Source: a candidate division WOR-3 bacterium (GTDB taxonomy: Bacteria; Hydrothermota; Tepidihabitantia; Tepidihabitantales; Tepidihabitantaceae). Taken from it: 64,000 nt of DNA. Location: NCBI GenBank assembly GCA_965649295.1, contig CBFGKH010000001.1, positions 288,001-352,000 of the forward strand. Direction: 5' to 3'. Numbering within the stretch: the first letter of the stretch is position 1; each line of letters opens with the position of its first letter. The notes beneath the pieces were generated by a model that had not been told where the DNA came from, ran no database searches, and worked only from the letters and a program-made list of their open reading frames with translations. Positions 26,061 through 40,803 of the stretch are shown in pieces. A program made the translations under genes and the position numbers.

Positions 26061-27149
26061 TCACAACATCTCCAGAAATGCCTCAACCCGGGTGCGCACC
26101 TGCTCCCGGTTCTCCTGCGAGTAGTCAGTATCGAGGTGGAGCACGGGCAGACCGACAGCAGTCTTCAACCGCTTCGCCTCGAAGTTCCAAGGGTCGCAGT
26201 AAAGCAGAGTCTTGTACACAATCCCCAGTACCTGCCGCGCCCGGGCCAGCCGACGGATATAGTCGTAAAGGCCGTCGTTCGGCCGACGGAAAGCACAAGG
26301 AACCCGGCAGTAGTAACCAGCGGCCAGACCCTCCATTGGGTCCGGCGTAATCGGAACGTCATCGGCATACGAACGACTGCCGGTGCAGAGGAAGTCGGCA
26401 ACGATATTCGCCTGCTGTTCGATCAATTCCAGTAGCCAGCGATCCTCAACGGCGAGGATGCTACCGCCGATCATCAGCCGCGGCACGTGTCCAAACAAAA
26501 CCCGCTGCTCGCTCGGCAGGGCCTTCAACATCTCAACCGCCCGTTCTGGCGCTAGTAGCCAAGCCAGAGCTACAAGGTCAAGCAAACGGCGCTGACTTGG
26601 CCCGGTCACAACTGACCGTCGCTCGTCAAGTTCCCGTAGCACTGCCCGCAGTTGATTGTAACTGACCGTCGCGGCTCGGATTGACTCATCACTTGCCCGG
26701 ATGCCGGTGAGGCTAGCCAGCTCAAGCCGTAGCTGTTCGAGCTGACGCCGAAACTCAGCCAGCCGCTGGGGCAGCGGCTCACTCGTGCGTGGCAGATAGA
26801 CCTGCAGCACCGGCCGGCCGAAATAGCGCTCGATTGACTCTGGCAGTCGCCGCATCATGTCGCAGGTATTGACAGCAACGACCGCATCGGTCAATCGGTA
26901 CAGCGGATCGAGCTCAAATCCACCCAAACAGCTCTTGCAAAAAGAACACGCATCAGCTCGCAGGTATTTGCTGCCGACCAGTTCTGCGGAGTAGCTACCA
27001 TGTTCAAGTCGCACCGGTATTGCGCCGGCCGCCGCAATCAACTCCACCGGCGCGTAGTTGCACAGATAGCCGATGACCTTCCCTCCCTGGCCGCGCGACC
27101 CTTCAATCTCAGCCAATCGCTGAGTTCGCAACTCGACTAGTCTGTCCAT
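26061..27149 (-). CDS. 2-hydroxyacyl-CoA dehydratase/double-cubane reductase-like Fe-S subunit
   Basis: GYLCNYAPVELIAAAG, CSFCK, TCD, CTG, PCA, YCD, TRVEAFLE. Confidence 0.87.
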   Translation of the reverse strand: MDRLVELRTQRLAEIEGSRGQGGKVIGYLCNYAPVELIAAAGAIPVRLEHGSYSAELVGSKYLRADACSFCKSCLGGFELDPLYRLTDAVVAVNTCDMMRRLPESIERYFGRPVLQVYLPRTSEPLPQRLAEFRRQLEQLRLELASLTGIRASDESIRAATVSYNQLRAVLRELDERRSVVTGPSQRRLLDLVALAWLLAPERAVEMLKALPSEQRVLFGHVPRLMIGGSILAVEDRWLLELIEQQANIVADFLCTGSRSYADDVPITPDPMEGLAAGYYCRVPCAFRRPNDGLYDYIRRLARARQVLGIVYKTLLYCDPWNFEAKRLKTAVGLPVLHLDTDYSQENREQVRTRVEAFLEML

Positions 27150-28522
27150 GGCTCCAGACTCATTCCATCAACAAACACCGTCTCAAACCTAGGGTCCTCC
27201 GCTAGTAACAACTCGCTGCACTGCTCGGCCAGCCTCTCGCTCAGCTGTAACCGGTCTGGACTGAGCGCTGCCTGCACCGCCCCGCGCAGAGCCAAGTTCC
27301 CATGCTGCCGCACTCGGTCAAGCGACAGAGTCGGCAGCAGGCCAATTGCCATTGCCGAACGCGGATTCAGCGCCGCTCCAAACTTGCCGGTGACATGCAG
27401 CCGGTAGATATCTGCCACCCGCGCACCCCACTCTCGAAGGAGCAACCGGACAGCAGCCATAATCGCGCCCTTAGCCAGTTGCACCGCCCGCAAATCATCC
27501 TGACTCAAGAAGACATGCCGGCCCAGTTCGAGTCGGCCGGCCCTGACTCTGCCTGATCGGTTAATCAGTCCCAAGCGCAGCCCACAGGCCACTGCATCGA
27601 CCACCCCTGAACCGCAGATGCTCCTGGGCTCGCTCTGACCGACAACACTAGCTACCAGTCGCCCCCCTCGTATCGCTACCGCCCTGATTGCTCCGCGTAT
27701 AGCAAGACTGCCGCACGCAAGCGTTGCCCCCTCAAATGCCGGCCCGGCCGCCGTCGAGCAGACAAGCAACCGCTCACAATTGCCTATTACCACCTCACCG
27801 TTGGTGCCGGCATCAATAAGCAATCCCAGTCGCCGACTACGCCAGATTCCTGATGCCAGTATTGCCGCAGTGCAGTCGCTGCCCACAAAGCTGCCCAGCA
27901 AAGGCAGTATCCGCAGCCGCAGACCACCGGCCGCAAACCGCAGCACTCTTTTGAGTGGCAGTCTTGAGCGATAAGGGTACTCGCCGAGGCTCGCCGGACT
28001 CTTCCGGGCGAGAAAATGCGCCATCACCGTGTTCCCAACCGCGACCAGCTCCTGTCTGCGGCTCACCCCATGACCTTCGGCAAATCCGGCGATCAACTTA
28101 TGCAGCCCGGCTTTCATCGCCCTAGCCCCGGCCCTAATCCGGCTCATCACATCTGCTCCGAATGGTAACTGAGGGTTGAGAGCATCCTGCCGGGCAACAA
28201 TCCTACCCGACTCACTATCTACGACCGCAAGAGCGACCGTCGTCGTGCCGACATCAGCGACAAGCTTGCGCGACACACCCGCGTATTGGCGTCTTGACTG
28301 TCGTGTCCTAGTGTTGGCGACGGCTGGTCTCACCCCGCTGACTTTCACCACTTCTGTCGGGACGTACCGGCACGCGAACACTCGGCGAGTGCCAGTCGAA
28401 TCGGTGACAGTGACGCGGCACTTGCCACAAGTACCGGCGCCACCGCAGTCCGACGTAACGCGCACACCCCGTTCCTGCAGCAGCCGCAGCAACGTCTGCC
28501 TGGCCCTCGGCACAATCCTCAC
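27137..28522 (-). CDS. Corrinoid reductive activator (RACo/RamA-like ASKHA protein with a 2Fe-2S domain)
   Basis: CGGAGTCGKC, DVGTTT, NPQ..FGADVMSR, DAGTNGE, AAGPAFEG, ICGSG, QLAKGA. Confidence 0.9.
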   Translation of the reverse strand: MRIVPRARQTLLRLLQERGVRVTSDCGGAGTCGKCRVTVTDSTGTRRVFACRYVPTEVVKVSGVRPAVANTRTRQSRRQYAGVSRKLVADVGTTTVALAVVDSESGRIVARQDALNPQLPFGADVMSRIRAGARAMKAGLHKLIAGFAEGHGVSRRQELVAVGNTVMAHFLARKSPASLGEYPYRSRLPLKRVLRFAAGGLRLRILPLLGSFVGSDCTAAILASGIWRSRRLGLLIDAGTNGEVVIGNCERLLVCSTAAGPAFEGATLACGSLAIRGAIRAVAIRGGRLVASVVGQSEPRSICGSGVVDAVACGLRLGLINRSGRVRAGRLELGRHVFLSQDDLRAVQLAKGAIMAAVRLLLREWGARVADIYRLHVTGKFGAALNPRSAMAIGLLPTLSLDRVRQHGNLALRGAVQAALSPDRLQLSERLAEQCSELLLAEDPRFETVFVDGMSLEPWTD

Positions 28523-29541
28523 TGCACCGTCTGCCCTTTGTTACCTTCGGACTGCTCCTCCCGCCCTGCCGCCACAACCGCCTGCACGTTCTCCTTCGGC
28601 GTGTCCGGCGGCACGTCGCAGCTCGTCGAGAGCAACAGGTTCGGCCCGCCAGTGGCAAGACACAGCCGAGCCGCGGCGGTCACTTGGTCGGCACTGCCCT
28701 GTAGCAACAGGTGAGTGGAGACATTACCCATCAGAACAATACCTGGGCCGACTTCAGCCCGGACCCATTCCAGGTCCATCTCATCCAGACTCAGTAGGTC
28801 GGCTCGCGTCGCGACCATTTGCTTCAGGATGTGCCGAGTTTCACCACAGATGTGCAGGCCACAGCGACTGCCGTTCTCGTGGATAGCAGCAACGAGCTGG
28901 GCAAGACCAGGCTGGGCGAACTCACGGAAAATGCTCGAACCGACCATGCTACCAGAAGCCACCGGATCACCGATAAATGGCACACCACCGGCTTTGATGA
29001 TTGCCTCAGCGTAGCGCACCTGGTTCTCAAGCGCCAGCCGGAGAAACTCCCGGGCCCGCTCCGGATTGTCAATCAAATCCGCAAGAAAGCCCTCAATACC
29101 ACGCAGAAAAGACGCAAGCGAGAACGGGCCCTTGAGCGATACCAGCACCGGTGCCTCACCGTTGAGCAGTTTCGTTAGCCGACGCGTCGTCTCGAGCACC
29201 ACTGGCATGCGGCCATCCTTTTCTGGCTCGGCCGGCTCCAGCTTCGACACGCGGGGCGGTTCGAGCAGAAACGGGTCGTCGTCTTCGGGGATGATTATCT
29301 GGGCACCCATCGCCTCAGCCTCGACCATTGTGTCGGTAAAGACCATCACCAGGTCGTAGCCATAGTACCGATACGCTGCATAGAGCACCCGGCTCAGTAC
29401 GTCCGCGTCCGTCACCGCTTCCGCTATTGAGTAACCTTCAAGCCGTGCCGCATGATTAGCCACGACCATCGGAAACACAACCGGTGCATCCGGCTTCTCG
29501 CCGCGCAACAGTTGGGCAAACCGCTTTGCCTTGTCCTTCAT
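28519..29541 (-). CDS. UroD-fold methylcobamide methyltransferase (MtaA/CmuA-like)
   Basis: VEAEAMGA, GPFSLA, LHICG, C-terminal SCD. Confidence 0.87.
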   Translation of the reverse strand: MKDKAKRFAQLLRGEKPDAPVVFPMVVANHAARLEGYSIAEAVTDADVLSRVLYAAYRYYGYDLVMVFTDTMVEAEAMGAQIIIPEDDDPFLLEPPRVSKLEPAEPEKDGRMPVVLETTRRLTKLLNGEAPVLVSLKGPFSLASFLRGIEGFLADLIDNPERAREFLRLALENQVRYAEAIIKAGGVPFIGDPVASGSMVGSSIFREFAQPGLAQLVAAIHENGSRCGLHICGETRHILKQMVATRADLLSLDEMDLEWVRAEVGPGIVLMGNVSTHLLLQGSADQVTAAARLCLATGGPNLLLSTSCDVPPDTPKENVQAVVAAGREEQSEGNKGQTVQ

Positions 29542-29658
29542 CAGCCTCGTGACCTTGTAACGGCTCTCATCTTTGTATCTTGGTGCTCGTGACAGTTCTT
29601 CCTTTGCCCGAACCCACCAGCGCCCTTCTTCGTGCCCTCGTCTCCTTCGTGATTTGTC

Positions 29659-30306
29659 CTAAGTCTCGCTGACCAGACGTTCGACTTCCCGCACTGCCGC
29701 GTAGGCATCGGCTGCATAGCCATCAGCACCAATCCGGCGAGCAAACTCAGCCGTGACTGGCGCACCGCCGACAATCACCCGCACCTGCTGCCGCAACCCG
29801 GCTTTGTCCAGCAGTTCGATGACCTTCCCCATCTTTGGCATCGTCGTTGTCATCAGCGACGACATCCCCAGCACCGCTGCACCGTACTCGCTAGCTGCCT
29901 TCACAAAACCATCGAGAAACACGTTGCGACCAAGGTCAATGACCTCAAACCCGGCTGCCTGCACCATCACCTTGACGATATTCTTGCCAATATCGTGGAT
30001 ATCGCCCTGCACCACACCCAGAATTACCCGGCCCCGGCTCTGAGGAAGCGCGCCGATATGCTCTTTCAGGATGTCGAACCCGGCGTACATCGCCCGCGAT
30101 GCAAGCAATACTTCCGGCACAAAACACTCCTTCGCCGCGTAGCGCTCACCCATTCGGCGCATTCCAACAGCAAGGCCATTAGTGATGGCATCCTGCGGCG
30201 ATAGCCCCAGTTGAATTACCCGGTGGGCAAGTTCGACCACTCGCTCGGGCTTCATCGCCACCACTGCCTCGGCCAGTTGCCCAAATAGGGGATGATTCTC
30301 ACTCAT
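29659..30306 (-). CDS. Corrinoid (B12-binding) protein, MtaC/MttC-like
   Basis: FVPEVL, GDIHDIGKNIV (DxHxxG), SSLMTTT, GGAP. Confidence 0.93.
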   Translation of the reverse strand: MSENHPLFGQLAEAVVAMKPERVVELAHRVIQLGLSPQDAITNGLAVGMRRMGERYAAKECFVPEVLLASRAMYAGFDILKEHIGALPQSRGRVILGVVQGDIHDIGKNIVKVMVQAAGFEVIDLGRNVFLDGFVKAASEYGAAVLGMSSLMTTTMPKMGKVIELLDKAGLRQQVRVIVGGAPVTAEFARRIGADGYAADAYAAVREVERLVSET

Positions 30307-30351
30307 TGCTAGAGGATAGCGCAGCCACCAGCCTGAGCAAATCTAGTCCAA

Positions 30352-31386
30352 CTAGCAAACCTGTAGCCGCCCATTGCCCACAACCACCTCACCGATGACA
30401 GTCGCCGCCTCAACTCCCCTGGTCAGCAGTCGGTCTAGCAACCTGTCCTTACGTTCAGCAGCCACTGCCATCAATAGCCCGCCCGCAGTCTGCGCGTCAC
30501 AGAGCAGTAGGCGTAGCTCTTCGGTAACCCCAGCAGCGAAATCTGCCCGCTCACGAATAAAACTGTAGTTCTTCAGCGACCCGACTGGAAAGAGACTCTG
30601 CCTGGCCAGCTCAATTGCTTCGGCAATAATCGGGACCCGGTCAGCATGAATGAGAATATCTATCCCTCCGCTCTGAGCCATCTCCCAGGCATGACCAAGG
30701 AGACCGAATCCGGTAACATCGGTGGCGGCGTTCACGCCGACCTCAACCATTACAGCCGCGGCAGTACGATTGAGCTGAGACATCACCCGGTTGGCCGCGG
30801 CTACCGCTTCTCGCGAAGCCAGGTTCGCCCGTAGCGCAGTTGTAATAATGCCAATGCCGAGCGGTTTGGTAAGGATGAGGACGTCCCCAGGGTTTGCCCC
30901 AACGTTCCGGACAACCCGGTCGGGGTGCACCAGCCCGGTCACTGCCAGACCGCACTTCACCTCCGAGTCCTTTAGAGTATGGCCGCCGGCAATCACCGCC
31001 CCAGCCTCGCGCACCTTGTCCCTCACGCCAGCAAGAATGGCACGGATAGTCTCGTGCCCAATCTCACCGACCGGAAAGGCAATGATGTTCAAGGCAACAA
31101 CTGGCCTGCCGCCCATCGCATAGACGTCAGAAAGCGAGTTCGCCGCCGCAATCTGACCGAAGACGTAAGGATCGTCGGCAATCGGCGTCAACACGTCCAC
31201 AGTGAGCACCAGTGCCAATTCGTCGGCAACCCGATAGACCCCGGCGTCATCTGCTGTCTCGCCGCCAACCAGCAGCCGCGGGTCAGTGAACTCAGGAAGC
31301 TGCTGCAGTACCTGCATCAGGTCTTCCTGACAGACCTTGGCCGCTCAGCCGGCAGCCCGCGCATAGTCAATAAGGCGACGCTTCAT
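30352..31386 (-). CDS. selD: Selenophosphate synthetase, itself a selenoprotein (Sec at UGA 31345-31347)
   Basis: ATG 31386 reads MKRRLIDYARAAG-U-AAK in frame with the 321-aa ORF. Also DDAGVY, ANSLSDVYAMGG, TDVTGFGLLGH. Confidence 0.95.
31319..31337 (-). promoter_or_regulatory. Candidate SECIS hairpin of selD
   Basis: AGGTCT-GTCAGGA-AGACCT starting 7 nt after the UGA. Confidence 0.7.
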
Positions 31387-31417
31387 TGCGCTCCTCTTCC
31401 CTCTGCCGCCGCGATTA

Positions 31418-32017
31418 CTAGAGTACGACGAGCTGTTCGCCAGCTAGTAGCGTCCCGGCCAACTCATACATATTGGAGACCGTGCCAACTCGAACCCGCT
31501 CCTTTGCTCCGAAGTAGTCAAGGCACGTCCCGCACGCCTTGATTGTCACACCGGCAGCTTCAAGAGTCTGCAGAGACTGCAGTTGGTCCGAGCCATCCAA
31601 GGCCAACTTCACGCCGCTATTTATGAGCAGCAGGTACGCTGGCCGCGTCGGTAGTTCGTTCAATGTCCGCAAGAATAGCGTCATCAGCAGACGGCCAAGT
31701 TCACGATCGCCCCGACCAAACTCGTCTGAGCTGATAACCAGCACGCGACCCTTGCGCTCCGCTGACTGCTGCTGGCTCGCACCCGGGCAGATGCTGACAA
31801 CATAACAGCCCGGCTCGCGCTCTGACCACGAAACCTGGCACCCGGCACCTTGGGCAAAGCGTACGATGTTGTCCCGTGACTCCGGACTGTCAGTCAGCAC
31901 GGCGATTGTCTCACCCTTGTGCGCTGCCAGTGCCCGCTTCGTCAGCACGATCGGTTCTGGGCAGACGAGTCCGCGAACGTCAACCTCGATTGTGACCACG
32001 GTAGCATCCTCGTCCAT
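31418..32017 (-). CDS. yedF: Selenium metabolism protein YedF-like (TusA/SirA + DsrE domains)
   Basis: DVRGLVCPEP; G.GD.ELG..LM; NSGVKL; ACGTCLDYF; VSNMYE. Start is 32017 or a GTG near 31999. Confidence 0.88.
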   Translation of the reverse strand: MDEDATVVTIEVDVRGLVCPEPIVLTKRALAAHKGETIAVLTDSPESRDNIVRFAQGAGCQVSWSEREPGCYVVSICPGASQQQSAERKGRVLVISSDEFGRGDRELGRLLMTLFLRTLNELPTRPAYLLLINSGVKLALDGSDQLQSLQTLEAAGVTIKACGTCLDYFGAKERVRVGTVSNMYELAGTLLAGEQLVVL

Positions 32018-32319
32018 CACCGCCGGTAGAGGACTGCAGCGGCAGGCCCGGCGTAGGGCAGCACCTCGACTGGTTCGATTCGCTGGGACGAAAGGATCGA
32101 GAGTGCTCGAGCGACCGAACCCGATTCGACGAGCAGCAGAACGCCACAACCCGCAGCCCGCCGCGGAACCACCAGCACTTCCAGACCTGCCTGCTTCAGG
32201 ACCTCGCCAGCCTGCAGCAGGAGGAGGACTGACGAGAAAGCGAGGGCCCAGCCAAGCGCCTCTTTGCATTGGTCGGCGACGAAGACGCTGTTGCCACTAT
32301 TCCCTTCGCTCAAAGCCAC
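32017..32319 (-). CDS. DUF3343-like putative Se/S carrier protein
   Basis: 'FSS.......E.LK..G.....VP.....CG' pattern next to yedF and selD; stop overlaps the yedF ATG; start uncertain. Confidence 0.7.
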   Translation of the reverse strand: MALSEGNSGNSVFVADQCKEALGWALAFSSVLLLLQAGEVLKQAGLEVLVVPRRAAGCGVLLLVESGSVARALSILSSQRIEPVEVLPYAGPAAAVLYRR

Positions 32320-32346
32320 CTCACAACCTTACGATTCGTCTGAGTC

Positions 32347-32366
32347 GGGCCTATTTCCCGAGGCCC
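32347..32366 (-). promoter_or_regulatory. Candidate SECIS hairpin of the microprotein
   Basis: GGGCCT-CGGGAAAT-AGGCCC starting 11 nt after the UGA. Confidence 0.7.
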
Positions 32367-32488
32367 ATGCACGGTATTCATATCCCGGAACTGACCTGAT
32401 GCACCGTCGCCCACTGGTCACGGACGGTTCCCAAAACCAGCAAAGCCAGCCCGGCAGCCAGCAAGAACACAAAGGCCAGCCGCCTCAT
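32351..32488 (-). CDS. 45-aa membrane-anchored selenoprotein with a UxxC motif (not in the ORF track)
   Basis: MRRLAFVFLLAAGLALLVLGTVRDQWATVHQVSSGI-U-IPCMGLGK*, UGA at 32378-32380, downstream hairpin. Confidence 0.8.
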
Positions 32489-32498
32489 TGCTAGCTGT

Positions 32499-33155
32499 TC
32501 AGGGTATGATGATTCGCTCACTACGGTTCACTCCGTCGGCTCCGAAGCTGACCACATAGACACCCGGTTGGATAGCCAGTGGCAACCGCCACTGTCCGCC
32601 TTGGCTGATTCCGCGAACAACCAGTCGGCCAGTGACATCGTGCAGGCTGACTAGTCCGTCCACTCGCAGCAACGTACCCGGCCAGACCAAGCCTGACAGA
32701 ACCGGCTCCGGCCGTGGCAGCGCCGCCGGCTGCTCAGCAATCCCAACACCGGCCAGCACGTGCACAGTAATCGAGTCGGCCAAAGTCGGTGCTTGCTGCG
32801 ACCGCACATGCAGCTCAACAACCGCCTCTCCAACATTGGCATTTGTGAAAGCGTCAATGACCGGGGTCGTGTCGGTTGCGCCCGGTGCTAGCGAATCATA
32901 CATCACGGTTCCTGGCTCAACACAGCGCCCGCGGACGCAGTAGGCGATGGCCCAGTTCGGTGGGTTCTGCCGAACGCGGCAGTCAAAGGCATAGACGTCG
33001 CTAGCGGTGCCGGTATTGGTGAGTGCGAAATGAAAGTAGGCCGGCTCTCCGGGTGCAACCCGCGCCACAGTGTCGTCGCGGCACACAAACCGAAACGAGT
33101 AGTCGGCCCAGGCCGCGTTCATCACCAACCCCAGTATCACAACATAACGTATCAT
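32499..33155 (-). CDS. Secreted Ig-like protein with a T9SS-type C-terminal domain
   Basis: Signal peptide, CVRGRC loop, C-terminal 'DVTGRLV...PGVYVV'. Confidence 0.7.
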   Translation of the reverse strand: MIRYVVILGLVMNAAWADYSFRFVCRDDTVARVAPGEPAYFHFALTNTGTASDVYAFDCRVRQNPPNWAIAYCVRGRCVEPGTVMYDSLAPGATDTTPVIDAFTNANVGEAVVELHVRSQQAPTLADSITVHVLAGVGIAEQPAALPRPEPVLSGLVWPGTLLRVDGLVSLHDVTGRLVVRGISQGGQWRLPLAIQPGVYVVSFGADGVNRSERIIIP

Positions 33156-33928
33156 TGCTTTCTCCCTGTTATCAGACGGGGAACACGTGCCGCCTGCAAA
33201 ACTCGTCGGTTCGAAGGCTGCTGAACAAAGACCACCAGTCCGAGCTGCTCCCGCCGCCAGTGCGGCAGCAACGTGAAGTGCTCGGTAACGAGTGTCGAAT
33301 CGCGCACAGGCACCAGAATCGGCCTGCCCGTGTAGTCAGGCAGCATCGCCCGCATCACCCGGTTGAAGATGGAATCAGTTGCGCCAGCCAGCGTTGCCGG
33401 CACCCTGTCCTCGATCAGGACCGTGAACAGCCGGAGCGTCTCGCCCGGAGTTGAATCCACTCCGGCGACGACAATACTCGCCGAACCGGCTGTCGAATCG
33501 AGACTCGTCTCGACCCGCAACTGAACTTTGGGGGTCACGCTCCGCGCTCCGAGTATCTGATTACGAAAGACCGCCAGGTTCTGCTCCGGGCCGGATGTCC
33601 TCACCGGCGGACCACCGTCGAATACGGTCGCCGGCTCTCCACCGCTTGTGTAGTAATACTCACATCGGTTCTCAGCATATGCCGGCGATAGGGTATCGCC
33701 CAGTGTCCGGCGATGGTAAGCGATGATGGCAACGCTGTCAGCAAACTCGGTCGCCAGGCTTTCGAGAGCATGAGCCGCATAAGGACAGTAACTGCAGCGC
33801 TGCCAGGTGAACAGCTCAGCCAGTACCACCCGATTCGTCGGTATCAACGGAATGACGGGCGCATCCGAGCAGCCAGCGGCCAGGCCAGCAAGAATCAACG
33901 CAGCCGCCAGCAGAAACAGCTCCGGCAC
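33152..33928 (-). CDS. Omp28-like thioredoxin-fold lipoprotein (CxxC)
   Basis: GTG start just after the upstream stop; lipobox LAAGC; ELFTWQRCSYCP; VVFVQ. Confidence 0.8.
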   Translation of the reverse strand: MPELFLLAAALILAGLAAGCSDAPVIPLIPTNRVVLAELFTWQRCSYCPYAAHALESLATEFADSVAIIAYHRRTLGDTLSPAYAENRCEYYYTSGGEPATVFDGGPPVRTSGPEQNLAVFRNQILGARSVTPKVQLRVETSLDSTAGSASIVVAGVDSTPGETLRLFTVLIEDRVPATLAGATDSIFNRVMRAMLPDYTGRPILVPVRDSTLVTEHFTLLPHWRREQLGLVVFVQQPSNRRVLQAARVPRLITGRKQ

Positions 33929-33929
33929 T

Positions 33930-35726
33930 CTAGCGTGAGACAACAACCTTGAGTACACGAACTTCAGTTCCGGTTCGCAGACAAGCAAAGTAGGTTCCAG
34001 CTCCGACCCGCTGACCGTCAGCGTCCGCAAGCGGCCAGACCGCACGCCCAGTGCCACTGAGACCCTGCCCGAGACTCTGCACCAGTCGGCCACCAGCATC
34101 GAAGATAGCAATCTCACCAACAACGCCGTCCGGCAATGAGTAGGCAACTGTTGCCCTTTGGTTGGTAATCGTCCCGCAGATGCGCAACTTTGCTGGTTGT
34201 GCTGCTGGCCGCTCGGCGATGCCGCCTACATACGGCGTCACCAGCAGGTCGTCAACATACCAGCCATCAGCATTGACGCTATTGTCAGAGATGAAGCGGA
34301 ATCCGACGCGCAGGGTCTGGCCAGCATACCGGCTGATGTCGAACGTCGGCTGCAGCCAACCGCTGCCCGTGCCGTCATAGCTCGCAATGGGATACCAGAA
34401 CGGCGAGCCGTTGTTCAACTCCACATACGCGAAGTCATAGCCAGCCTCAGTCGCATACCAATGGTAGAACGAAAGCTGCGCTCCATCGCCAACCGTGAAG
34501 TAGGGCGAGATTAGCCGCATGTCGGTCTCGACGTTGTATTGGTGGCTCGCGTCTGAACCGCAGTACCACGAACTCATCGGCGTATGACTACGGTAGGTAG
34601 TCAGATGCCAGGCGTCCCTAATGCCAGAATGCCACCAGTTGCCGACAGCATCCATATTGTCGGATATGCCCGAGCCGGTGGTGATGTTCACCGGCACACT
34701 CAACGTGTCCAGAATCTCATCACTCCCTGCCACTACCAGAGTGAGCGTGGCGACATGCGGGTCCGGACAGCCGGCCGCCACTCGGATGGCAAAAGGCGTG
34801 GTCGAATAGCCGACCTCACCCACTGCCAGCGTCGGGAATGCGGCTGTCGGCTGGGTGACAGTCACGTAAGGGTTAGTGCTCAGCAGTGTGCCAGTCAGGC
34901 CGCTTGCTCTTCCCAGCCCCATATTGCGCAATGCGATGGTCAGGTTCGTCTCCTGCCCTGGTGCCGGTCGCGCTGACTGATAACCGTAATAGACTACCTT
35001 CGCCTTAGGAATGACTGCTGTCCGGGCGCCCTGGAACATCTGCTTGGTAGCGTTGTTCTGGACAAAGACAACGATCTCGCAGTTACTGGCCACCCAAGCC
35101 GCGTTCAACGTGTAATCTCGAGTCGCAGTCAGCGAATCATTCGCCGGCACCGTCACTGCCACGCCGGTTCCGTTCGGCAGCATATCACGCACCACGTATT
35201 GCAGACTCTCCATTCCCTGCCACGGATGGTAGATGTGATTCTGGATTATGGCAACGTGAAGCTGGCCGCTCACTGCTGTGCCGGTCGTGTTCCGAAGCAG
35301 GATATCGAGATGCCCCTGCCTAGTAAGCGTGTCATACGTATTCGACAGCTCAATCTCCAGCGGACTGGCGACAAGTTTGCGGGTGTCAAAGAACTGCCGG
35401 TAGGTCGGATACATAGTACCGGTATGAACGCCACCGACGACACTGTAATCGCCGTCAAGCCGAACCGTCGGATAGCCGCTGACGCCGTAGTAGTTCATTC
35501 GTGTCACCGATACCGTGTTGTAGTAGGGATCGCTCGTTGAGGGGTGATAGGCCAGCGGCACAACAGTGTCGAACGCGTTGAAGTCGAGTTCTTCGATGCC
35601 ACGGGCCGCTCCTGGACAGTAGGTACACCAAGTCGCAGTAAAGTCCTCAATCACGACTATTCGCTGACTTGCGGTCAACAGCGCCGGAATGCAAAGTACC
35701 AGCGCCAAGAACATACCTCTACTCAT
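33930..35726 (-). CDS. Omp28-like CxxC protein with a beta-sandwich domain and T9SS/FlgD-type C-terminus
   Basis: EDFTATWCTYCP, GYPT, VVFVQ, GWYVDD; GGAGG RBS. Confidence 0.82.
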   Translation of the reverse strand: MSRGMFLALVLCIPALLTASQRIVVIEDFTATWCTYCPGAARGIEELDFNAFDTVVPLAYHPSTSDPYYNTVSVTRMNYYGVSGYPTVRLDGDYSVVGGVHTGTMYPTYRQFFDTRKLVASPLEIELSNTYDTLTRQGHLDILLRNTTGTAVSGQLHVAIIQNHIYHPWQGMESLQYVVRDMLPNGTGVAVTVPANDSLTATRDYTLNAAWVASNCEIVVFVQNNATKQMFQGARTAVIPKAKVVYYGYQSARPAPGQETNLTIALRNMGLGRASGLTGTLLSTNPYVTVTQPTAAFPTLAVGEVGYSTTPFAIRVAAGCPDPHVATLTLVVAGSDEILDTLSVPVNITTGSGISDNMDAVGNWWHSGIRDAWHLTTYRSHTPMSSWYCGSDASHQYNVETDMRLISPYFTVGDGAQLSFYHWYATEAGYDFAYVELNNGSPFWYPIASYDGTGSGWLQPTFDISRYAGQTLRVGFRFISDNSVNADGWYVDDLLVTPYVGGIAERPAAQPAKLRICGTITNQRATVAYSLPDGVVGEIAIFDAGGRLVQSLGQGLSGTGRAVWPLADADGQRVGAGTYFACLRTGTEVRVLKVVVSR

Positions 35727-35888
35727 GGTTCCTCCATTGGTTTGTCTTCTGGGTATCGAGAAAGTGGGATTAGTTGCAGAATGGTCCTTCTCGACGGCAG
35801 CCTGGCGTCAGCACACTTGTTAGTCACGAGTTCCACCTGCGGCCGAGTCGAAGTAGATTACTCACAGTGCTGCTCAATGGCCGCCGTA

Positions 35889-35918
35889 GCTGTGGGCGGA
35901 ATGAAGACCGCCCACAGC
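35889..35918 (-). terminator. Stem-loop after the FTR-like gene
   Basis: GCTGTGGGCGG...CCGCCCACAGC perfect 11-bp stem; no clear U-tract. Confidence 0.5.
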
Positions 35919-35941
35919 ATTTCGGCTGATTCTATGAATCA

Positions 35942-36229
35942 TCAGGGCTTGACCGCCGCTGGTGCGAAGAAAAGTCGGCAGAAGCAGTGCCCTTCCTTGG
36001 CGACTTCCTCGTGCACTGTCGGACACGGACAGAGCACATCCTTGTCCGGATTGAGCGGATGTGACTGCTTGCACGGACAGTAATACTTGCCGTATTCAGC
36101 AAAGTTGCGTGCCAGCAAGTTTGCGACCCTCAGCGTCCGTTCCATATCCGGGTTGAGGACATAGCCAAGCTCCTCGCCGACCTTCCGCACCCGCTCGATA
36201 TTGGCGCGATCGCTCGCACTCAGTTCCAT
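35942..36229 (-). CDS. Ferredoxin:thioredoxin reductase catalytic-subunit-like protein
   Basis: CPC...CPC...HCFC.LF motifs. Confidence 0.9.
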   Translation of the reverse strand: MELSASDRANIERVRKVGEELGYVLNPDMERTLRVANLLARNFAEYGKYYCPCKQSHPLNPDKDVLCPCPTVHEEVAKEGHCFCRLFFAPAAVKP

Positions 36230-36231
36230 AG

Positions 36232-37083
36232 CTACTTCTTCTCCGGTGCAATGACCCAAAAGTCTAGTCCAGCAGTGAACGGTGCAATCTGACCACCGCG
36301 CGAGATGAACTGCAGCGGCAGCCCGGCCTTGGGCCGAATCGAGAGCATCGGCACCGGTTTCACTACCAGCCCCAGTTGGGCAACGTGCCGGTCCTGCTCG
36401 GTCTTCTCCTTGGCAGTGCCATTGATCTCGGTCCGGGCCTGCATCGTGCCGACGAGCGATGCCCAGACCTGGAACTTCTTCGTAAAGTCGTAATCGAACT
36501 TGGCCACGTATTCAAACATGTTGCCGACCCTGGTCGTATCATTCGTCTTGCCGTTAAGCCAGTAGGCTGCGCGCAGGTGCGCCACTGCCTTGCCCAGCGG
36601 CTTGGTTGTAGCAATCAGCCCGACTGCGCCTGCCCACTTGCCATCGCCGATTTTCGGCTGCGCGTTCTTATCCGCGGTTGGAAATGCCACTGCAGCTGCC
36701 GCCGTCACCTTGACCGGCGCTGCCCAGCCTCTCACCACGGCATAGCGGGTCTGCAGTTCGACGTCGCCGACGCCGAACGAACTCTTCGAACCCTGGCTCC
36801 TGCTGGCCAGCGGTGCCTGCACCAGCAACTCCAGGTTCTTCACTGGAGCGAAACCGGCGATAACGGTTGCGCTGATGGTCGTGGTCTTGAGCGTGTCAGC
36901 CAGCGCGTCCCACTTGCTGTCGGTCCAGTTGTACTTGCTTCCTGTCCGAGCGTAGCCAAAGTCAATCTCGCCGAGAAACTGCATCGGCTTCAGTGTACCT
37001 GCGCCCCGCCCGATCAGCGGCGTGGCTACTGCGCTGCTAGCGACCGCAGCAACTAGTGCTGCGACTACTGCGACTCTCTTCAT
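36232..37083 (-). CDS. Outer-membrane beta-barrel channel (MetA-pathway/SphA-like transporter family)
   Basis: Signal peptide, 'GVGDV.L..RY', 'FPT' and amphipathic strands; GGAGG RBS. Confidence 0.65.
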   Translation of the reverse strand: MKRVAVVAALVAAVASSAVATPLIGRGAGTLKPMQFLGEIDFGYARTGSKYNWTDSKWDALADTLKTTTISATVIAGFAPVKNLELLVQAPLASRSQGSKSSFGVGDVELQTRYAVVRGWAAPVKVTAAAAVAFPTADKNAQPKIGDGKWAGAVGLIATTKPLGKAVAHLRAAYWLNGKTNDTTRVGNMFEYVAKFDYDFTKKFQVWASLVGTMQARTEINGTAKEKTEQDRHVAQLGLVVKPVPMLSIRPKAGLPLQFISRGGQIAPFTAGLDFWVIAPEKK

Positions 37084-37885
37084 TCGAACCTCCTTTTGTC
37101 TTGTCGGTCCCGTCGTTGCCTTCGACAATTACGGACAAGGCCTGCTCCAGCAGGTCCCGAACCTGCAGCAGCACGCCATCGAACTCTGGGCCGAACCGCG
37201 GCCGCGGCCGACCCATCCTGACTGTTACCTCACCGATAATGCGACCCGGCCGGTCAGCCATCACCACGACCCGGTCCCCCAAATAGACCGCCTCATCAAC
37301 GTTGTGCGTGACAAAAACCACCGTCTTACCGGTCTGCTGCCAAATCGCCAGCAGTTCATCTTGAAGCCGGTGACGGGTTCGCTCATCGAGCGCTCCGAAC
37401 GGCTCGTCAGCCAGCAGCACTGCTGGGTCAGTGGCCAGCGCCCGAGCAATGGCTGCGCGTTGCTGCATGCCGCCCGAAAGCTCGTGCGGTCGGCTGCGCT
37501 CGAACCCAGCCAGTCCCACCATCCGTATCAGCTCCTGTGCCTTGGCCCGCCGCTCGACCCGACCGACACCGGCCAGCTCCAGACCGAAAGCAACATTGTC
37601 AAGCACGCTCCGCCACGGCAGCAGGGCATATTGCTGAAAAACGAGTCCAACCTCGCGCCGCGGCCCGAGGACCTCCTGGCCGGCGACTCGAACCGCACCG
37701 CTATCCGGCCGCTCCAGCCCAGCCGCGACCCGCAGCAGCGTCGTCTTGCCACAGCCAGTCGGCCCGACCACCGTGACAAACGAACCCGGTGCGACCCTGA
37801 GCGTAACCCGGTCAAGAGCGACCACACTGGCACCAGCGCCGATGTAGCGGCGGGTTACACCTTCGAACTCCAGCCCGGCTGCCAT
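37037..37885 (-). CDS. ABC transporter ATP-binding protein (SsuB/TauB type)
   Basis: GPTGCGKTT, LSGGMQQR, DEPFGALD, VTH. Confidence 0.93.
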   Translation of the reverse strand: MAAGLEFEGVTRRYIGAGASVVALDRVTLRVAPGSFVTVVGPTGCGKTTLLRVAAGLERPDSGAVRVAGQEVLGPRREVGLVFQQYALLPWRSVLDNVAFGLELAGVGRVERRAKAQELIRMVGLAGFERSRPHELSGGMQQRAAIARALATDPAVLLADEPFGALDERTRHRLQDELLAIWQQTGKTVVFVTHNVDEAVYLGDRVVVMADRPGRIIGEVTVRMGRPRPRFGPEFDGVLLQVRDLLEQALSVIVEGNDGTDKTKGGSNEESRSSRSTSCCGR

Positions 37886-38727
37886 CACCGTGCCTTTGCC
37901 TGCCAGCTCGTAAACGGCCGGCCGACGGTGCTGACGACCCACGACAGCAGAGCACCGACCAGGCCGATGAGGATCATCCCGGTCACGAGCACGTCCATCT
38001 CGGCAAGCTGGTACGCGTAGATCATCAGATAGCCGATTCCCGAGCTTGAACCGGGCAACATCTCCGCTGCCACAATCACCATCCAAGCCGTACCCAGCCC
38101 AATCCGCAGACCAGTGAAGATAGCCGGCAGTGCTGCCGGCAGCACGACCTTGCGAAAGACCTGGCCGCGAGTTGCCCCGAGCACCAATGCCGACTCCACA
38201 TACGAGTCCCGAACACCAAGCACGCCATCAACTGTATTCAGAAGAATCGGAAAGAACGCCCCATAGAAAAGGATGAAGAGCATTCCCACCTGCACCGTGT
38301 CGAAGATGGTGTGGGAATAGCGCACACCGAACAGATTGACAATCGTGTAGGTCTTGAAGATGGCCATCGCAAACGGTATCCAGGCAATTGGACAGAGCGG
38401 CCGAAACATCTCGACAAACGGGCCGACCAGCCGTCGCACCAGCCCAATCCGGCCCATCAACAACCCGAGCGGTACTGCCGCGACCATTGCCAGAACAAAA
38501 CCCATGAGCACCCGCAATCCCGAGACCGCAATGTTGTGCAGCAGTGAACCGGTTTCGAGCACATTCGCACCCGGCCGTAGCAACCGCCGAACCACTGCTT
38601 CGACCCGTGGCACCAGCCAAGGGTTGTTCATCCGCACCGCGGCTAACTCCCATACGGCAAGAAAGAGCAGCGGCAGGGCCGCACCAAGCAGTAACCGACC
38701 AAGCCGAGTGCGAAACAGTTGGGACAC
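37885..38727 (-). CDS. ABC transporter permease (SsuC/TauC type)
   Basis: RPLCPIAWIP, EAA-like loop, WMVIVAAEM. Confidence 0.92.
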   Translation of the reverse strand: MSQLFRTRLGRLLLGAALPLLFLAVWELAAVRMNNPWLVPRVEAVVRRLLRPGANVLETGSLLHNIAVSGLRVLMGFVLAMVAAVPLGLLMGRIGLVRRLVGPFVEMFRPLCPIAWIPFAMAIFKTYTIVNLFGVRYSHTIFDTVQVGMLFILFYGAFFPILLNTVDGVLGVRDSYVESALVLGATRGQVFRKVVLPAALPAIFTGLRIGLGTAWMVIVAAEMLPGSSSGIGYLMIYAYQLAEMDVLVTGMILIGLVGALLSWVVSTVGRPFTSWQAKAR

Positions 38728-38730
38728 GTG

Positions 38731-39855
38731 CTACTTCTTCTTTGCTATCCTTGCCCGCGCTCCGGCCAGGGCCGGTTCGAGAAGTGAGAAGTCGTAGGAC
38801 ATGGCCTCAAACTCCGGCCGCGTCTTATCCTTGAGCGCGTTCGTAATCTTGCCCAGCCCGACCATTTCCTGATACCAGGTCCACATTCCATCCCGGAACG
38901 CAGCATCCGGCTCCATCGAGTAACCTGAGGTAGCCATCGAAACCATCTCAACTTGCGGCGTCGTGCCAATCCATTGCGCAACATAGTTTGCTGCCTGCTC
39001 ACGATTGGTATTGATGTAGTGCGTGGCAACCGCCATCAGTTCGAGGAACTTCTGAATCTGCGGCCCCAGCTTGGCAACCGCCGCCGTATTGGCAGCAATC
39101 GCGCAGCAAGGATGGTCCTTGAACATCCCGGGCGGCAGGTCGTGCAGCTCGGCCACGCAGCGACCGATCCCTTTCGATTCTGCCACCGCACACCAAGGGT
39201 TGTTCGACACATAGGCGTCAATCTGATTGGACTGGATGCCAGCGTTGAGATTCGCCTCATCCTTCATATTCACCATCAATATCTCGGCCTTAGTGTCAGC
39301 TACGTCGCTGGTGAACGAGATGCCCTCTTCCTGTAGTGCCCGCTTGAAGATTAGCTCGGCGACCGCCACCGGATTTTTGAAACCGACGCGAATCTGGGTC
39401 GGTTCGCGCTTCACCCAGTCAATGAAATCCCGCCACGAGTTCACCTCGACGCCGTTCTTCACCACCAGCATATCGCCTTTGGCGTGGAGCGGCGCGATAA
39501 TCTTCATCGGCGAGCCTTTGTCCACGAAGAACTCGATAGCCGCGACTCCGCCGAACCCGACATCAAACGCGCCCTGACTCATCATCGTCGGCATCTCGGC
39601 CCCGCCGCCAGCCTTGTACAACTCGATTTCGGCCACGGCCTTCTTGCCGTCCCGCAGCTCATAGAGCTCTTTGGGGCGCAGCTCCTTGAGCCAGATGCCG
39701 TACTCTTTCTGGAACTTCTCACCGGCCAGCGCTGCGACATACAACGCTGAGTGATGGTCGTGGCCAACATGGCCGACCCGCACAACCGGCAGCTTGGCTG
39801 CCAGCATCGCACTTGCGAACGCCAGCAGCAGTAGCATCGTCACTATCCTCTTCAT
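38731..39855 (-). CDS. ABC transporter substrate-binding protein (SsuA/NMT1-like) with HDHH and HPCC motifs
   Basis: Signal peptide, GHVGHDHHSAL, DHPCC. Confidence 0.85.
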   Translation of the reverse strand: MKRIVTMLLLLAFASAMLAAKLPVVRVGHVGHDHHSALYVAALAGEKFQKEYGIWLKELRPKELYELRDGKKAVAEIELYKAGGGAEMPTMMSQGAFDVGFGGVAAIEFFVDKGSPMKIIAPLHAKGDMLVVKNGVEVNSWRDFIDWVKREPTQIRVGFKNPVAVAELIFKRALQEEGISFTSDVADTKAEILMVNMKDEANLNAGIQSNQIDAYVSNNPWCAVAESKGIGRCVAELHDLPPGMFKDHPCCAIAANTAAVAKLGPQIQKFLELMAVATHYINTNREQAANYVAQWIGTTPQVEMVSMATSGYSMEPDAAFRDGMWTWYQEMVGLGKITNALKDKTRPEFEAMSYDFSLLEPALAGARARIAKKK

Positions 39856-40011
39856 CTCCCACTCCTCTTGCCATTTGCCGTTATACTGCCAAGGCAGCAA
39901 CTCTACGCTTGCTGCTCTTTTCGGCTCCGAGCCAGTCGCTCTCCGTCTCTTAGGCGACCGTCCTACCGCGGGTTCAGGACTCCTTTGCCAGACTCAGGAT
40001 GCCCCTGCTGC

Positions 40012-40803
40012 TCATTTCTCCGCTTCGTACCAACCGCGGCCAACCTGATGCCGATGGGCCGCGTCGCGCCAGAGATTGACCAGCCCTTCAGCAAAAGCAT
40101 AAAGCTCGTTACCGAAGTTCTTGATGATGCTCGGCTTCAGCTCGACCTCAACCTTGTGTTTGTACTCGTCAAAACACTTCGCAAACTCGTGGGTCTGGTC
40201 CTGCACGACGATATTCTTGAACCCGGCCGCCTTCAGCACATCGGCCCAGCCGTTCAAGGTCTCCATATATGGAAACGCCATCGACTCATACAGCTTGGCC
40301 AGAAGCGGCTCATCAATCTCGCCGGTGATAACCCAGTCAGTGAAGATGATTTTGCCGCCCGGCTTCAGCACTCGATAGGCCTCGCGGGCCAGCTCATCCT
40401 TGTTCGTGACATAACACCAAGCTTCCTGGCCCCAGACTACATCAAAGGTCTCCTTCTTGAACGGCATGTCCATCGCGTTCCCCTCGACAAAAGTCACCAA
40501 ACTCTCAAGGCCGGCTTCCCGGGTTCGCTGCCGCGCCTTTTCGAGCATCGTCTTGGTGAAGTCAAGGCCGGTTACGCGTACGCCATAGGTCTTGGCCAGC
40601 ACGCGTGCCGGTGCGCCGAGCGCCGAACAGACATCGAGGACATGCATGCCCGGCTTCAGGCCCACTGCCTTGGCCATGCGGTGGGTGATTTCGTCACCGC
40701 CGGAATGAATCTGCTCTGACATCACGGCTTCCCAGAGCAAGCCACCCGGCCCATCATAGACATCCTGAACATCCTTACCGGTGTAGTCGTAACGCTTCTG
40801 CAT
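40012..40803 (-). CDS. Class I SAM-dependent methyltransferase (sarcosine/dimethylglycine N-methyltransferase-like)
   Basis: QIHSGG, VLDVCSALG, FDVVWGQEAWC, RVLKPGG; AGGAGG RBS. Confidence 0.88.
   Translation of the reverse strand: MQKRYDYTGKDVQDVYDGPGGLLWEAVMSEQIHSGGDEITHRMAKAVGLKPGMHVLDVCSALGAPARVLAKTYGVRVTGLDFTKTMLEKARQRTREAGLESLVTFVEGNAMDMPFKKETFDVVWGQEAWCYVTNKDELAREAYRVLKPGGKIIFTDWVITGEIDEPLLAKLYESMAFPYMETLNGWADVLKAAGFKNIVVQDQTHEFAKCFDEYKHKVEVELKPSIIKNFGNELYAFAEGLVNLWRDAAHRHQVGRGWYEAEK

Follow-up and report, generated by a model that had tools for sequence, protein, structure and literature searches.

Directly upstream of a DUF3343 gene in a candidate division WOR-3 bacterium lies an apparent gap between genes, in which a very small membrane protein reading frame is interrupted by TGA. 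Is this codon a stop, or does it encode selenocysteine (Sec) in a protein that gene callers overlook? We examined the question in a window of 64,000 nucleotides (60% G+C) from contig CBFGKH010000001.1, numbering positions from its first letter; the genes described below lie on the minus strand. An earlier note on this DNA had proposed a Sec-form microprotein at the site, and the homologue, SECIS and Sec-machinery checks reported here all came out in favor of that proposal. The in-frame UGA is almost certainly read as selenocysteine. We explain the locus as a 45-residue selenoprotein gene with Sec at UGA-37, whose U-x-x-C motif would act in redox or chalcogen transfer with partners from the same gene cluster, and we put the probability of this reading at roughly 0.85.

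The micro gene begins at an ATG (32488-32486) and runs through 36 sense codons, MRRLAFVFLLAAGLALLVLGTVRDQWATVHQVSSGI, up to a TGA (32380-32378). Another eight sense codons, I-P-C-M-G-L-G-K, separate this TGA from a TAG (32353-32351). The coding sequence, placed at 32354..32488 on the minus strand from its translation, hydropathy and homologues, contains 45 codons, and the UGA at 32378..32380 is codon 37. The translated minus strand has the frame that the note described. The note's span of 32347..32488 is correct at the start; its other end, 32347, is the end of a hairpin, and the true stop (32351..32353) ends at 32351. An alternative GTG start at 32521 was rejected because it would overlap the upstream gene and because homologues start with M-(R/K)-R. 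The predicted protein begins M-R-R, and its only strongly hydrophobic stretch spans residues 4-22 (mean Kyte-Doolittle value 2.66). The residues just before the UGA are ...V-S-S-G-I, U-I-P-C occupies residues 37-40 of 45, and the C-terminus reads U-I-P-C-M-G-L-G-K.

A UGA in place of the first Cys of a CxxC pair was the core of the original proposal, and this is what homologues reveal. When whole genomes of relatives were searched with the peptide (U replaced by C), 34 of 41 had a match (E<=1), and a 30-member family profile (alignment A1) matched 200 of the 272 genomes of the phylum (E<=0.001). Among 150 listed of the 235 profile matches, a hand count found a single TGA inside the match in 62 and no TGA in 88. 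From the returned loci we extracted 49 distinct copies and compared them at the UGA column, where 32 have TGA and 17 have a Cys codon, TGC or TGT; these sequences are kin, and the counts are not independent events. The tail is kept throughout, with x-x-C-(M/I)-G following the column in 49/49 copies and a stop three to five codons on. With U aligned as C, A1 shows no variation at C37 (the U column), C40 or G42. The bacterium's own genome holds a second copy on another contig (G000:C6:48346-48480), which reads ...A-A-Q-I-U-L-S-C-M-G-L-V and has TGA at the U column.

Sec insertion in bacteria depends on a SECIS element, and the note had pointed to a GGGCCT/AGGCCC stem 11 nt after the UGA. The stem is there. 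Eleven nucleotides (32377-32367) separate the TGA from the 5' arm GGGCCT (32366-32361), which is followed by the loop CGGGAAAT (32360-32353) and the 3' arm AGGCCC (32352-32347). The spacing of 11 nt is that of the minimal E. coli fdhF SECIS. We found an additional U.G pair (32367/32346) that lengthens the stem to 7 bp, so that the SECIS-type hairpin as a whole covers 32346..32367 on the minus strand, with the 8-nt loop CGGGAAAU at 32353-32360 and a folding energy of -10.8 kcal/mol. Published constraints on bacterial SECIS elements call for a loop of 3-9 nt and a stem of 4-16 bp (PMC13188914, Fig. 2 legend), and the same figure gives a G within the first two loop bases, a distance of 16-37 nt from UGA to loop and an MFE <= -7.5 kcal/mol. 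The window hairpin falls within all of these limits (7 bp, 8-nt loop with G at position 2, 17-nt spacing, -10.8 kcal/mol), as do those of 28 of the 32 TGA forms by simple enumeration. The four misses (L001, L019, L033 and L058) all fall short of the -7.5 kcal/mol limit in this enumeration and include the paralogue in the same genome, whose hairpin reaches -6.4 kcal/mol.

By itself, the window hairpin folds no better than shuffled sequence (z = -0.48; 55/200 shuffles fold at least as well); the case for it rests on comparison with relatives. Single-sequence folding was also not significant for the paralogue (z = +0.91) or for SelD (z = -1.56), and an Rfam scan of positions 30000-36500 returned one chance-level match (ilvB-OMG, E 0.39). 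Across 31 TGA forms, 95.1% of the cells of the six-pair stem are paired, and sliding the 3' partner by one to three columns brings the figure to at most 64%. Stem covariation is 0.273 vs 0.095 for shuffles, a level that 0/500 shuffles reach, with the qualification that the shuffles ignore kinship. The wobble position of the Gly codon and the nucleotide right after the stop change in concert (GC 16, CG 10, UA 3, UG 1). The lone unpaired cell at this pair belongs to the window row, which is misaligned and was counted as unpaired because the MAFFT alignment has no gap to accommodate the 3 extra nucleotides of the window's loop. Over 45 nt, the mean MFE is -16.2 kcal/mol in TGA forms and -7.2 kcal/mol in Cys forms, and the Cys forms lack the SECIS structure. 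With both the published constraints and covariation among relatives behind it, the description of the hairpin as SECIS-like is well founded.

The hairpin also contains the real stop codon, as had been noticed. The TAG contributes its T as the final loop base, and its AG opens the 3' arm, forming the first two pairs. The stop is TAG in 32/32 TGA forms, whereas the 17 Cys forms use TAA (5), TGA (6) and TAG (6), which argues that the stem holds the identity of the UAG. The family thereby offers a clean natural case in which RNA structure constrains the choice of stop codon.

The genome encodes the machinery for making and inserting Sec. We found selA (575.6 bits), selB (345.3 bits) and the selC product, a tRNA-SeC with anticodon TCA (72.9 bits), in addition to selD, which lies about 1 kb downstream in the same gene run (31386-30352), as the note had stated. 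SelD (30352..31386, minus strand; TIGR00476, E 4.3e-103, 344.8 bits) is itself predicted to contain Sec: read from ATG 31386 with TGA as U, its frame includes G-U-A-A-K, with the UGA at 31347-31345. Across the phylum, selA occurs in 122/272 genomes, and among the matches listed it occurs in 45/47 genomes with a TGA form, the two in which it was not detected being G022 (92% complete) and G223 (74% complete). Families that lack selA have only Cys forms among the matches listed. Genome-wide reassignment of UGA was rejected, since TGA is the stop of 20/48 window ORFs of at least 250 aa. Readthrough of the UGA without Sec, by near-cognate insertion of Trp or Cys or by SelB-independent local recoding, is barely credible: sequence cannot name the inserted residue and Cys serves at that position in many relatives, but the genome has the complete Sec machinery, a covarying SECIS-type hairpin sits at canonical spacing and is missing in Cys forms, TGA serves as a normal stop in the rest of the window, and the SelD of the same operon uses the same device.

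Could the UGA instead be a true stop? The product would then be a 36-residue membrane peptide, the hairpin a terminator or regulatory stem, and the tail untranslated. Gene callers do stop at the UGA, dozens of 37-aa database entries are the outcome, and the energy of the window hairpin is, as described above, unexceptional. Against this stand the Cys-codon homologues, which carry the same tail in frame, and the near confinement of TGA forms to genomes with selA. The stem is also not followed by a T run, which speaks against a terminator. The sequence after the UGA also varies as a coding sequence does. Across 29 TGA forms, a set that leaves out the window and L020 because of a 3-nt indel in their rows, the entropies at the first, second and third positions of the seven codons after the TGA are 0.13, 0.11 and 1.105 bits, and the third position is variable in 7/7 codons. 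Past the hairpin, the entropy of TGA forms rises to 1.82 bits. Variation concentrated at third positions, followed by free sequence beyond the hairpin, indicates that coding runs through the UGA to the UAG, and we regard a true stop at codon 37 as very unlikely.

The database entries that seem to favor a stop are better read as products of annotation. A profile search of 5.8 billion proteins gave 160 matches, and 'hypothetical protein' is the only name among the entries listed, several of which come from candidate division WOR-3 records. Most of the listed protein matches are 37-aa fragments that end in ...A-A-Q-I at the UGA, whereas the full-length entries are Cys forms. The expectation that standard gene callers miss or cut the gene is thus confirmed by the many entries that end just before the UGA. 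An exhaustive comparison of the clade profile with 1.84 billion cluster representatives yielded 384 matches (E<=0.001), and by hand count the Sec column is the exact end of the sequence in 29 of the best 150 of these 384. Annotation pipelines systematically cut this selenoprotein family at the UGA. Adding it would correct selenoproteome counts for the whole candidate phylum and offer curators a simple model, with a transmembrane helix, the motif [U/C]xx[C/U] and the UAG stop enclosed in the SECIS. Two other explanations of so small a reading frame were rejected: a pseudogene, given the conservation of the gene in 47 genomes, and a RiPP precursor, because of the hydrophobic N-terminal helix and because no maturase neighbor was seen.

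In a distant family of the phylum, the position of Sec within the motif varies. Two genomes (L081 and L082) encode C-L-S-U, in which the UGA takes the place of the second Cys and the frame closes with TAA, and a third (L083) encodes U-L-S-C, which suggests that Sec has replaced either Cys of the pair. Each of the three has its own hairpin shortly after the UGA, with single-sequence folding z values of +0.52 for the CxxU form L081 and -3.16 for L083. Judged from these sequences, the appearance of Sec at either Cys is as expected for a reactive dithiol center. Part of the interest of the family lies here: Sec has apparently arisen at either Cys of a membrane-tethered peptide only 45 residues long.

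To place the protein in context, we examined the genes around it and around its relatives. Two types of neighborhood emerged, and the window copy belongs to the one we call type B, a cluster made up, in order, of a protein resembling the catalytic subunit of ferredoxin-thioredoxin reductase (FTR-B-like), the micro gene, two Omp28-like proteins, a protein with a T9SS tail, DUF3343, YedF and SelD. At the head of the conserved cluster is the FTR catalytic-subunit-like gene (35942..36259, minus strand; NF041072, E 3.1e-12). It is followed by an Omp28-like protein of 598 aa (33930..35726, minus strand) that combines a WCTYCP motif with a MAM-like domain and a T9SS tail and is a Cys-form relative of NF045500. 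The next gene encodes an Omp28-like protein with a thioredoxin-like RCSYCP motif, identified from profile matches, its translation and orthologs (33152..34147, minus strand); its true start is probably near 33947, since orthologs have 264 aa. Against NF045500, these two neighbors (33152-35726) give E values of 1.9e-20 and 2.4e-8, with neither reaching the cut-off of 200, and type B Omp28-like proteins have thioredoxin-like WCxxCP motifs. Directly upstream of the micro gene is a 218-aa protein with a T9SS C-terminal sorting domain (32499..33155, minus strand; TIGR04183, E 3.7e-5), which corresponds to the 'Ig-like gene' of the earlier note. Farther upstream, the same gene run includes an ABC transporter and a methyltransferase.

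Directly downstream of the micro gene is the DUF3343, or Se/S carrier-like, gene (32017..32319, minus strand, start uncertain). It matches PF11823 with E 1.9e-4 and 21.3 bits, under the cut-off of 25, and its ortholog in L077 scores 30.1 bits. YedF, with TusA and DsrE-like domains (31418..32017, minus strand; TIGR03527, E 6.8e-54), has a likely ATG at 32017 that overlaps the DUF3343 stop, and SelD follows. We fetched 16 kb around the gene in four relatives (L077-L080), and in 4/4 the micro gene occurs together with one or more Omp28-like genes and SelD. The remaining members are less constant: FTR-B-like (FeThRed_B) was detected in three (L077, L078 and L080), YedF in two, DUF3343 in one and the T9SS tail in one. 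An Omp28-like gene directly follows the micro gene in 9/11 type B loci. In the window, the micro gene comes after the T9SS-tail gene and directly before DUF3343, unlike in the four relatives, where it precedes the Omp28-like genes, and this weakens a strict argument from operon order.

The second type, type A, is represented by the copy on contig 6 of the same genome, which lies between a DUF6029 outer-membrane-like protein and a NapH/MauN-like Fer4_5 protein. This partner, a polytopic Fe-S membrane protein with weak CcoG and HgcB-like matches, is directly downstream of the micro gene in 16/16 loci, and DUF6029 is upstream in 14/16. In L032, the micro gene and the Fe-S gene overlap by ATGA. 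Proteins of the NapH/MauN/CcoG type therefore adjoin type A copies, whereas the window's type B copy has no such neighbor. We know of no NapH or CcoG partner that is a CxxC or UxxC microprotein.

We modelled the complex of the Cys-form type A peptide with its NapH-like partner from L032, a paralogue type in another genome rather than the window copy. The pair scored 0.58 and the best of three controls 0.00; the runs agreed in at least 99% of contacts, and the pLDDT of the partner was at least 77. The mark for such predictions is reached by 116/157 solved complexes and by 2/215 mismatched pairs, and it is reached at values of at most 0.60 by only 18/157 solved complexes and by both of the mismatched pairs that pass. 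The prediction lends weak support to the pairing of type A with its partner. Combined with the conserved adjacency of the two genes, it gives modest support to a subunit relationship, and we propose that the type A paralogue is probably a small subunit of the NapH-like Fe-S membrane protein.

How might the window protein be made, and what might it do? Translation would start at ATG 32488 and proceed to UGA-37, where the hairpin 11 nt past the UGA would recruit SelB with Sec-tRNA(Sec) and Sec would be inserted at codon 37. Eight further codons would then be read before termination at the UAG inside the hairpin. The recoding part of this account is well supported. The predicted product has a short, positively charged N-terminus, one membrane helix and a tail of about 23 residues, in which U-x-x-C stands eight residues before the C-terminus. 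From the positive-inside rule and the N-terminal Arg residues, we infer an N-in/C-out anchor that leaves the tail in the periplasm; alternatively, the N-terminal region may be a signal peptide that is cleaved off. In the anchored form, U-x-x-C would sit just outside the inner membrane, where it may exchange electrons, sulfur or selenium with the exported Omp28-like proteins, and the type B peptide may also be linked to the route through YedF, DUF3343 and SelD. The micro-selenoprotein is probably an outward-facing, membrane-tethered UxxC relay for redox equivalents or chalcogen.

A different role for the selenoprotein deserves to be weighed. Its U-x-x-C could be a metal site, for instance for copper or mercury, or a site for delivering a cofactor to a membrane complex, by analogy with the small CcoS-type partners of CcoG-like Fe-S membrane proteins. 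CcoG is a cupric reductase and CcoS is its small partner. The Fer4_5 identity of the type A partner and its weak matches to CcoG and HgcB-like proteins are in keeping with this proposal, as is the suggestion, made for several transport-linked families, that Sec may be a metal ligand (PMC13188914). The window copy, however, keeps company with thioredoxin-fold CxxC proteins, an FTR-like protein, YedF, DUF3343 and SelD, not with metal transporters, and the occurrence of Sec at either CxxC position is typical of redox pairs, though not exclusive to them. We consider a metal or cofactor role possible but, on this evidence, unlikely, and we favor the redox or chalcogen relay.

A more specific version of the relay, which we regard as decidedly doubtful, would make the microprotein the missing membrane step of a dedicated route for acquiring selenium. 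Exported Omp28-like thioredoxin-fold proteins would capture or reduce external selenium (or sulfur) species, the outward-facing U-x-x-C peptide would hold the element at the inner membrane as an adduct (selenenyl-sulfide or selenide) and would be kept reduced by the NapH-like Fe-S protein from the paralogous cassette, and the element would be handed on to YedF, DUF3343 and SelD. If this were so, a selenoprotein would feed the cell's own synthesis of selenoproteins. Type B is fixed in a cluster that ends in YedF and SelD, which makes delivery of selenium to SelD testable in this lineage.

The resemblance to CD1871A-like proteins to which the note had pointed is real and weak at once. NF040920, the CD1871A family CXXC motif-containing protein, matches the window peptide over model positions 2-38 of 38 with 20.7 bits (E 2.7e-4), which misses the curated cut-off of 32 bits, and it matches 11/30 members of the clade alignment (E<=0.01). 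Intermediate sequences bridge the gap: of 142 wider homologues scanned from the 384 matches of the clade profile, 102 match NF040920 at E<=0.01, the best at 5.1e-17. The score below the cut-off and the bridging homologues together place the window family as a divergent branch of NF040920 rather than a member by the curated threshold. Members of the NF040920 family are small proteins that combine a hydrophobic stretch at the N-terminus with a CxxC close to the C-terminus. The window peptide shares these features and a similar length (about 40-45 aa, for a model of 38 positions) and differs in that its first Cys is Sec. Because of its U-I-P-C we also considered HUIPC and other listed Sec families, and these were rejected when an NCBIfam scan at E<=1 gave only NF040920.

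We found no record of Sec forms of the CD1871A/NF040920 family in the literature searched, where no paper names CD1871A. Neither NF040920 nor the window family appears among the 119 prokaryotic selenoprotein families and subfamilies in Table 1 of PMC13188914 (2026), with the reservation that the supplementary tables of that paper and of PMC13326102 might list them, and a term search of the available text of the Haft and Gwadz preprint gave no mention of the family. Other resources were equally quiet: a word-based homologue search with the single protein had no match where the profile search found homologues, the Protein Atlas gave unnamed clusters only (scores <=0.86), and a search of sequencing runs listed two DNA runs (shares 0.08 and 0.06) and no RNA run. 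What the sequence points to is a genuine, unannotated selenoprotein gene that adds a Sec-containing member to a known family of small CxxC proteins, without amounting to a system of a new kind. At 45 residues, its product would be among the shortest genetically encoded selenoproteins known.

Some described selenoproteins share individual features with it. The UXX-star and KCU-star families in Table 1 of PMC13188914 have Sec close to the C-terminus, and like the window peptide, with Sec a few residues before the stop, they are easily cut by gene callers. With Sec so near the end, the SECIS has to be placed at the stop codon or past it, and the names of these two families suggest that theirs lies beyond it. 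They differ from the window peptide in being soluble, with other folds and motifs, and the window family stands apart in having its stop inside the stem, with UAG in 32/32. The Omp28-related selenoprotein NF045500 ('hypothetical protein GOS_C', UxxC), whose Cys-form relatives lie near the micro gene, is likewise an extracytoplasmic CxxC/UxxC protein; unlike the microprotein, it has several hundred residues and a thioredoxin-like fold, which makes it a candidate partner and not a homologue. Eukaryotic SelS-like selenoproteins have one transmembrane helix and a Sec near the C-terminus that is believed to pair with a neighboring Cys as a selenenylsulfide (PMC3628699). This layout, a single helix with Sec close to the end, is that of the micro-selenoprotein, but SelS is unrelated in sequence, has 189 aa and a 3'-UTR SECIS, and carries its tail in the cytosol.

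The genome from which the window derives encodes a second micro-selenoprotein, on the plus strand of contig 6 (G000:C6:48346-48480; positions 1480-1617 of the extracted locus L001). Its predicted product ends in ...A-A-Q-I-U-L-S-C-M-G-L-V before a TAG stop, and one neighbour of the gene encodes a DUF6029 barrel-like protein, the other a 419-aa NapH-like Fe-S membrane protein. The hairpin of this copy is weaker, with 5 bp and -6.4 kcal/mol.

In a distantly related family of the phylum, two genomes of a single genus (G251 and G253; loci L081, UGA at 1618-1620, and L082) carry the UGA at the second Cys (C-L-S-U) and a TAA stop. Their congener G252 (L083) reads U-L-S-C, and the pattern suggests that Cys changed to Sec independently at each position. 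Two genomes hold a Cys form and a Sec form in tandem on the same strand, about 930 nt apart (L056, 1477-1524 and 2410-2457; L058, 547-594 and 1477-1524). At locus L039, where a T9SS-tail gene precedes the micro gene as it does in the window, the Cys form (1591-1638; TGT, TAA stop) retains a 6-bp hairpin in SECIS register, GGUUUG-GUU-UAAACC, possibly the remnant of a recent Sec-to-Cys change.

SelD in the window (30352-31386, minus strand) is itself a predicted selenoprotein. With its in-frame UGA (31345-31347) read as U, the N-terminus becomes M-K-R-R-L-I-D-Y-A-R-A-A-G-U-A-A-K..., and the standard-code ORF (30352-31317) misses this N-terminal active-site loop. Downstream of SelD, minus-strand genes at 26061-30306 encode a corrinoid (B12-binding) protein, a URO-D-like methyltransferase, a RACo-type corrinoid activase and an HGD-D-like protein; likewise, HGD-D and BcrAD genes flank the micro genes of the window's kind (type B) in relatives (L020, L021, L023 and L039).

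Two minus-strand Omp28-like ORFs, 33152-34147 and 33930-35726, apparently overlap by 218 nt. Because orthologs of the former are 264 aa long, its true start probably lies near 33947, and the overlap is probably an artefact of the first-start rule. An FtrB-like gene (35942-36259, minus strand) heads the conserved cluster in the window genome and in three of the four relatives examined. Its product is a Cys-form relative of the "FtrB family double-selenoprotein" (NF041072, E = 3.1e-12, below the cut-off), with Cys rather than Sec throughout the C-P-C and C-x-C motifs. The upstream run on the same strand (36232-40803) contains a MetA-like outer-membrane channel and an ABC transporter with an ATPase (37037-38086), a permease (37885-38727) and an NMT1-like binding protein (38731-39900). 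It also contains a methyltransferase (40012-40803) of a type that immediately precedes type B micro genes in another genus (L028, L030 and L035).
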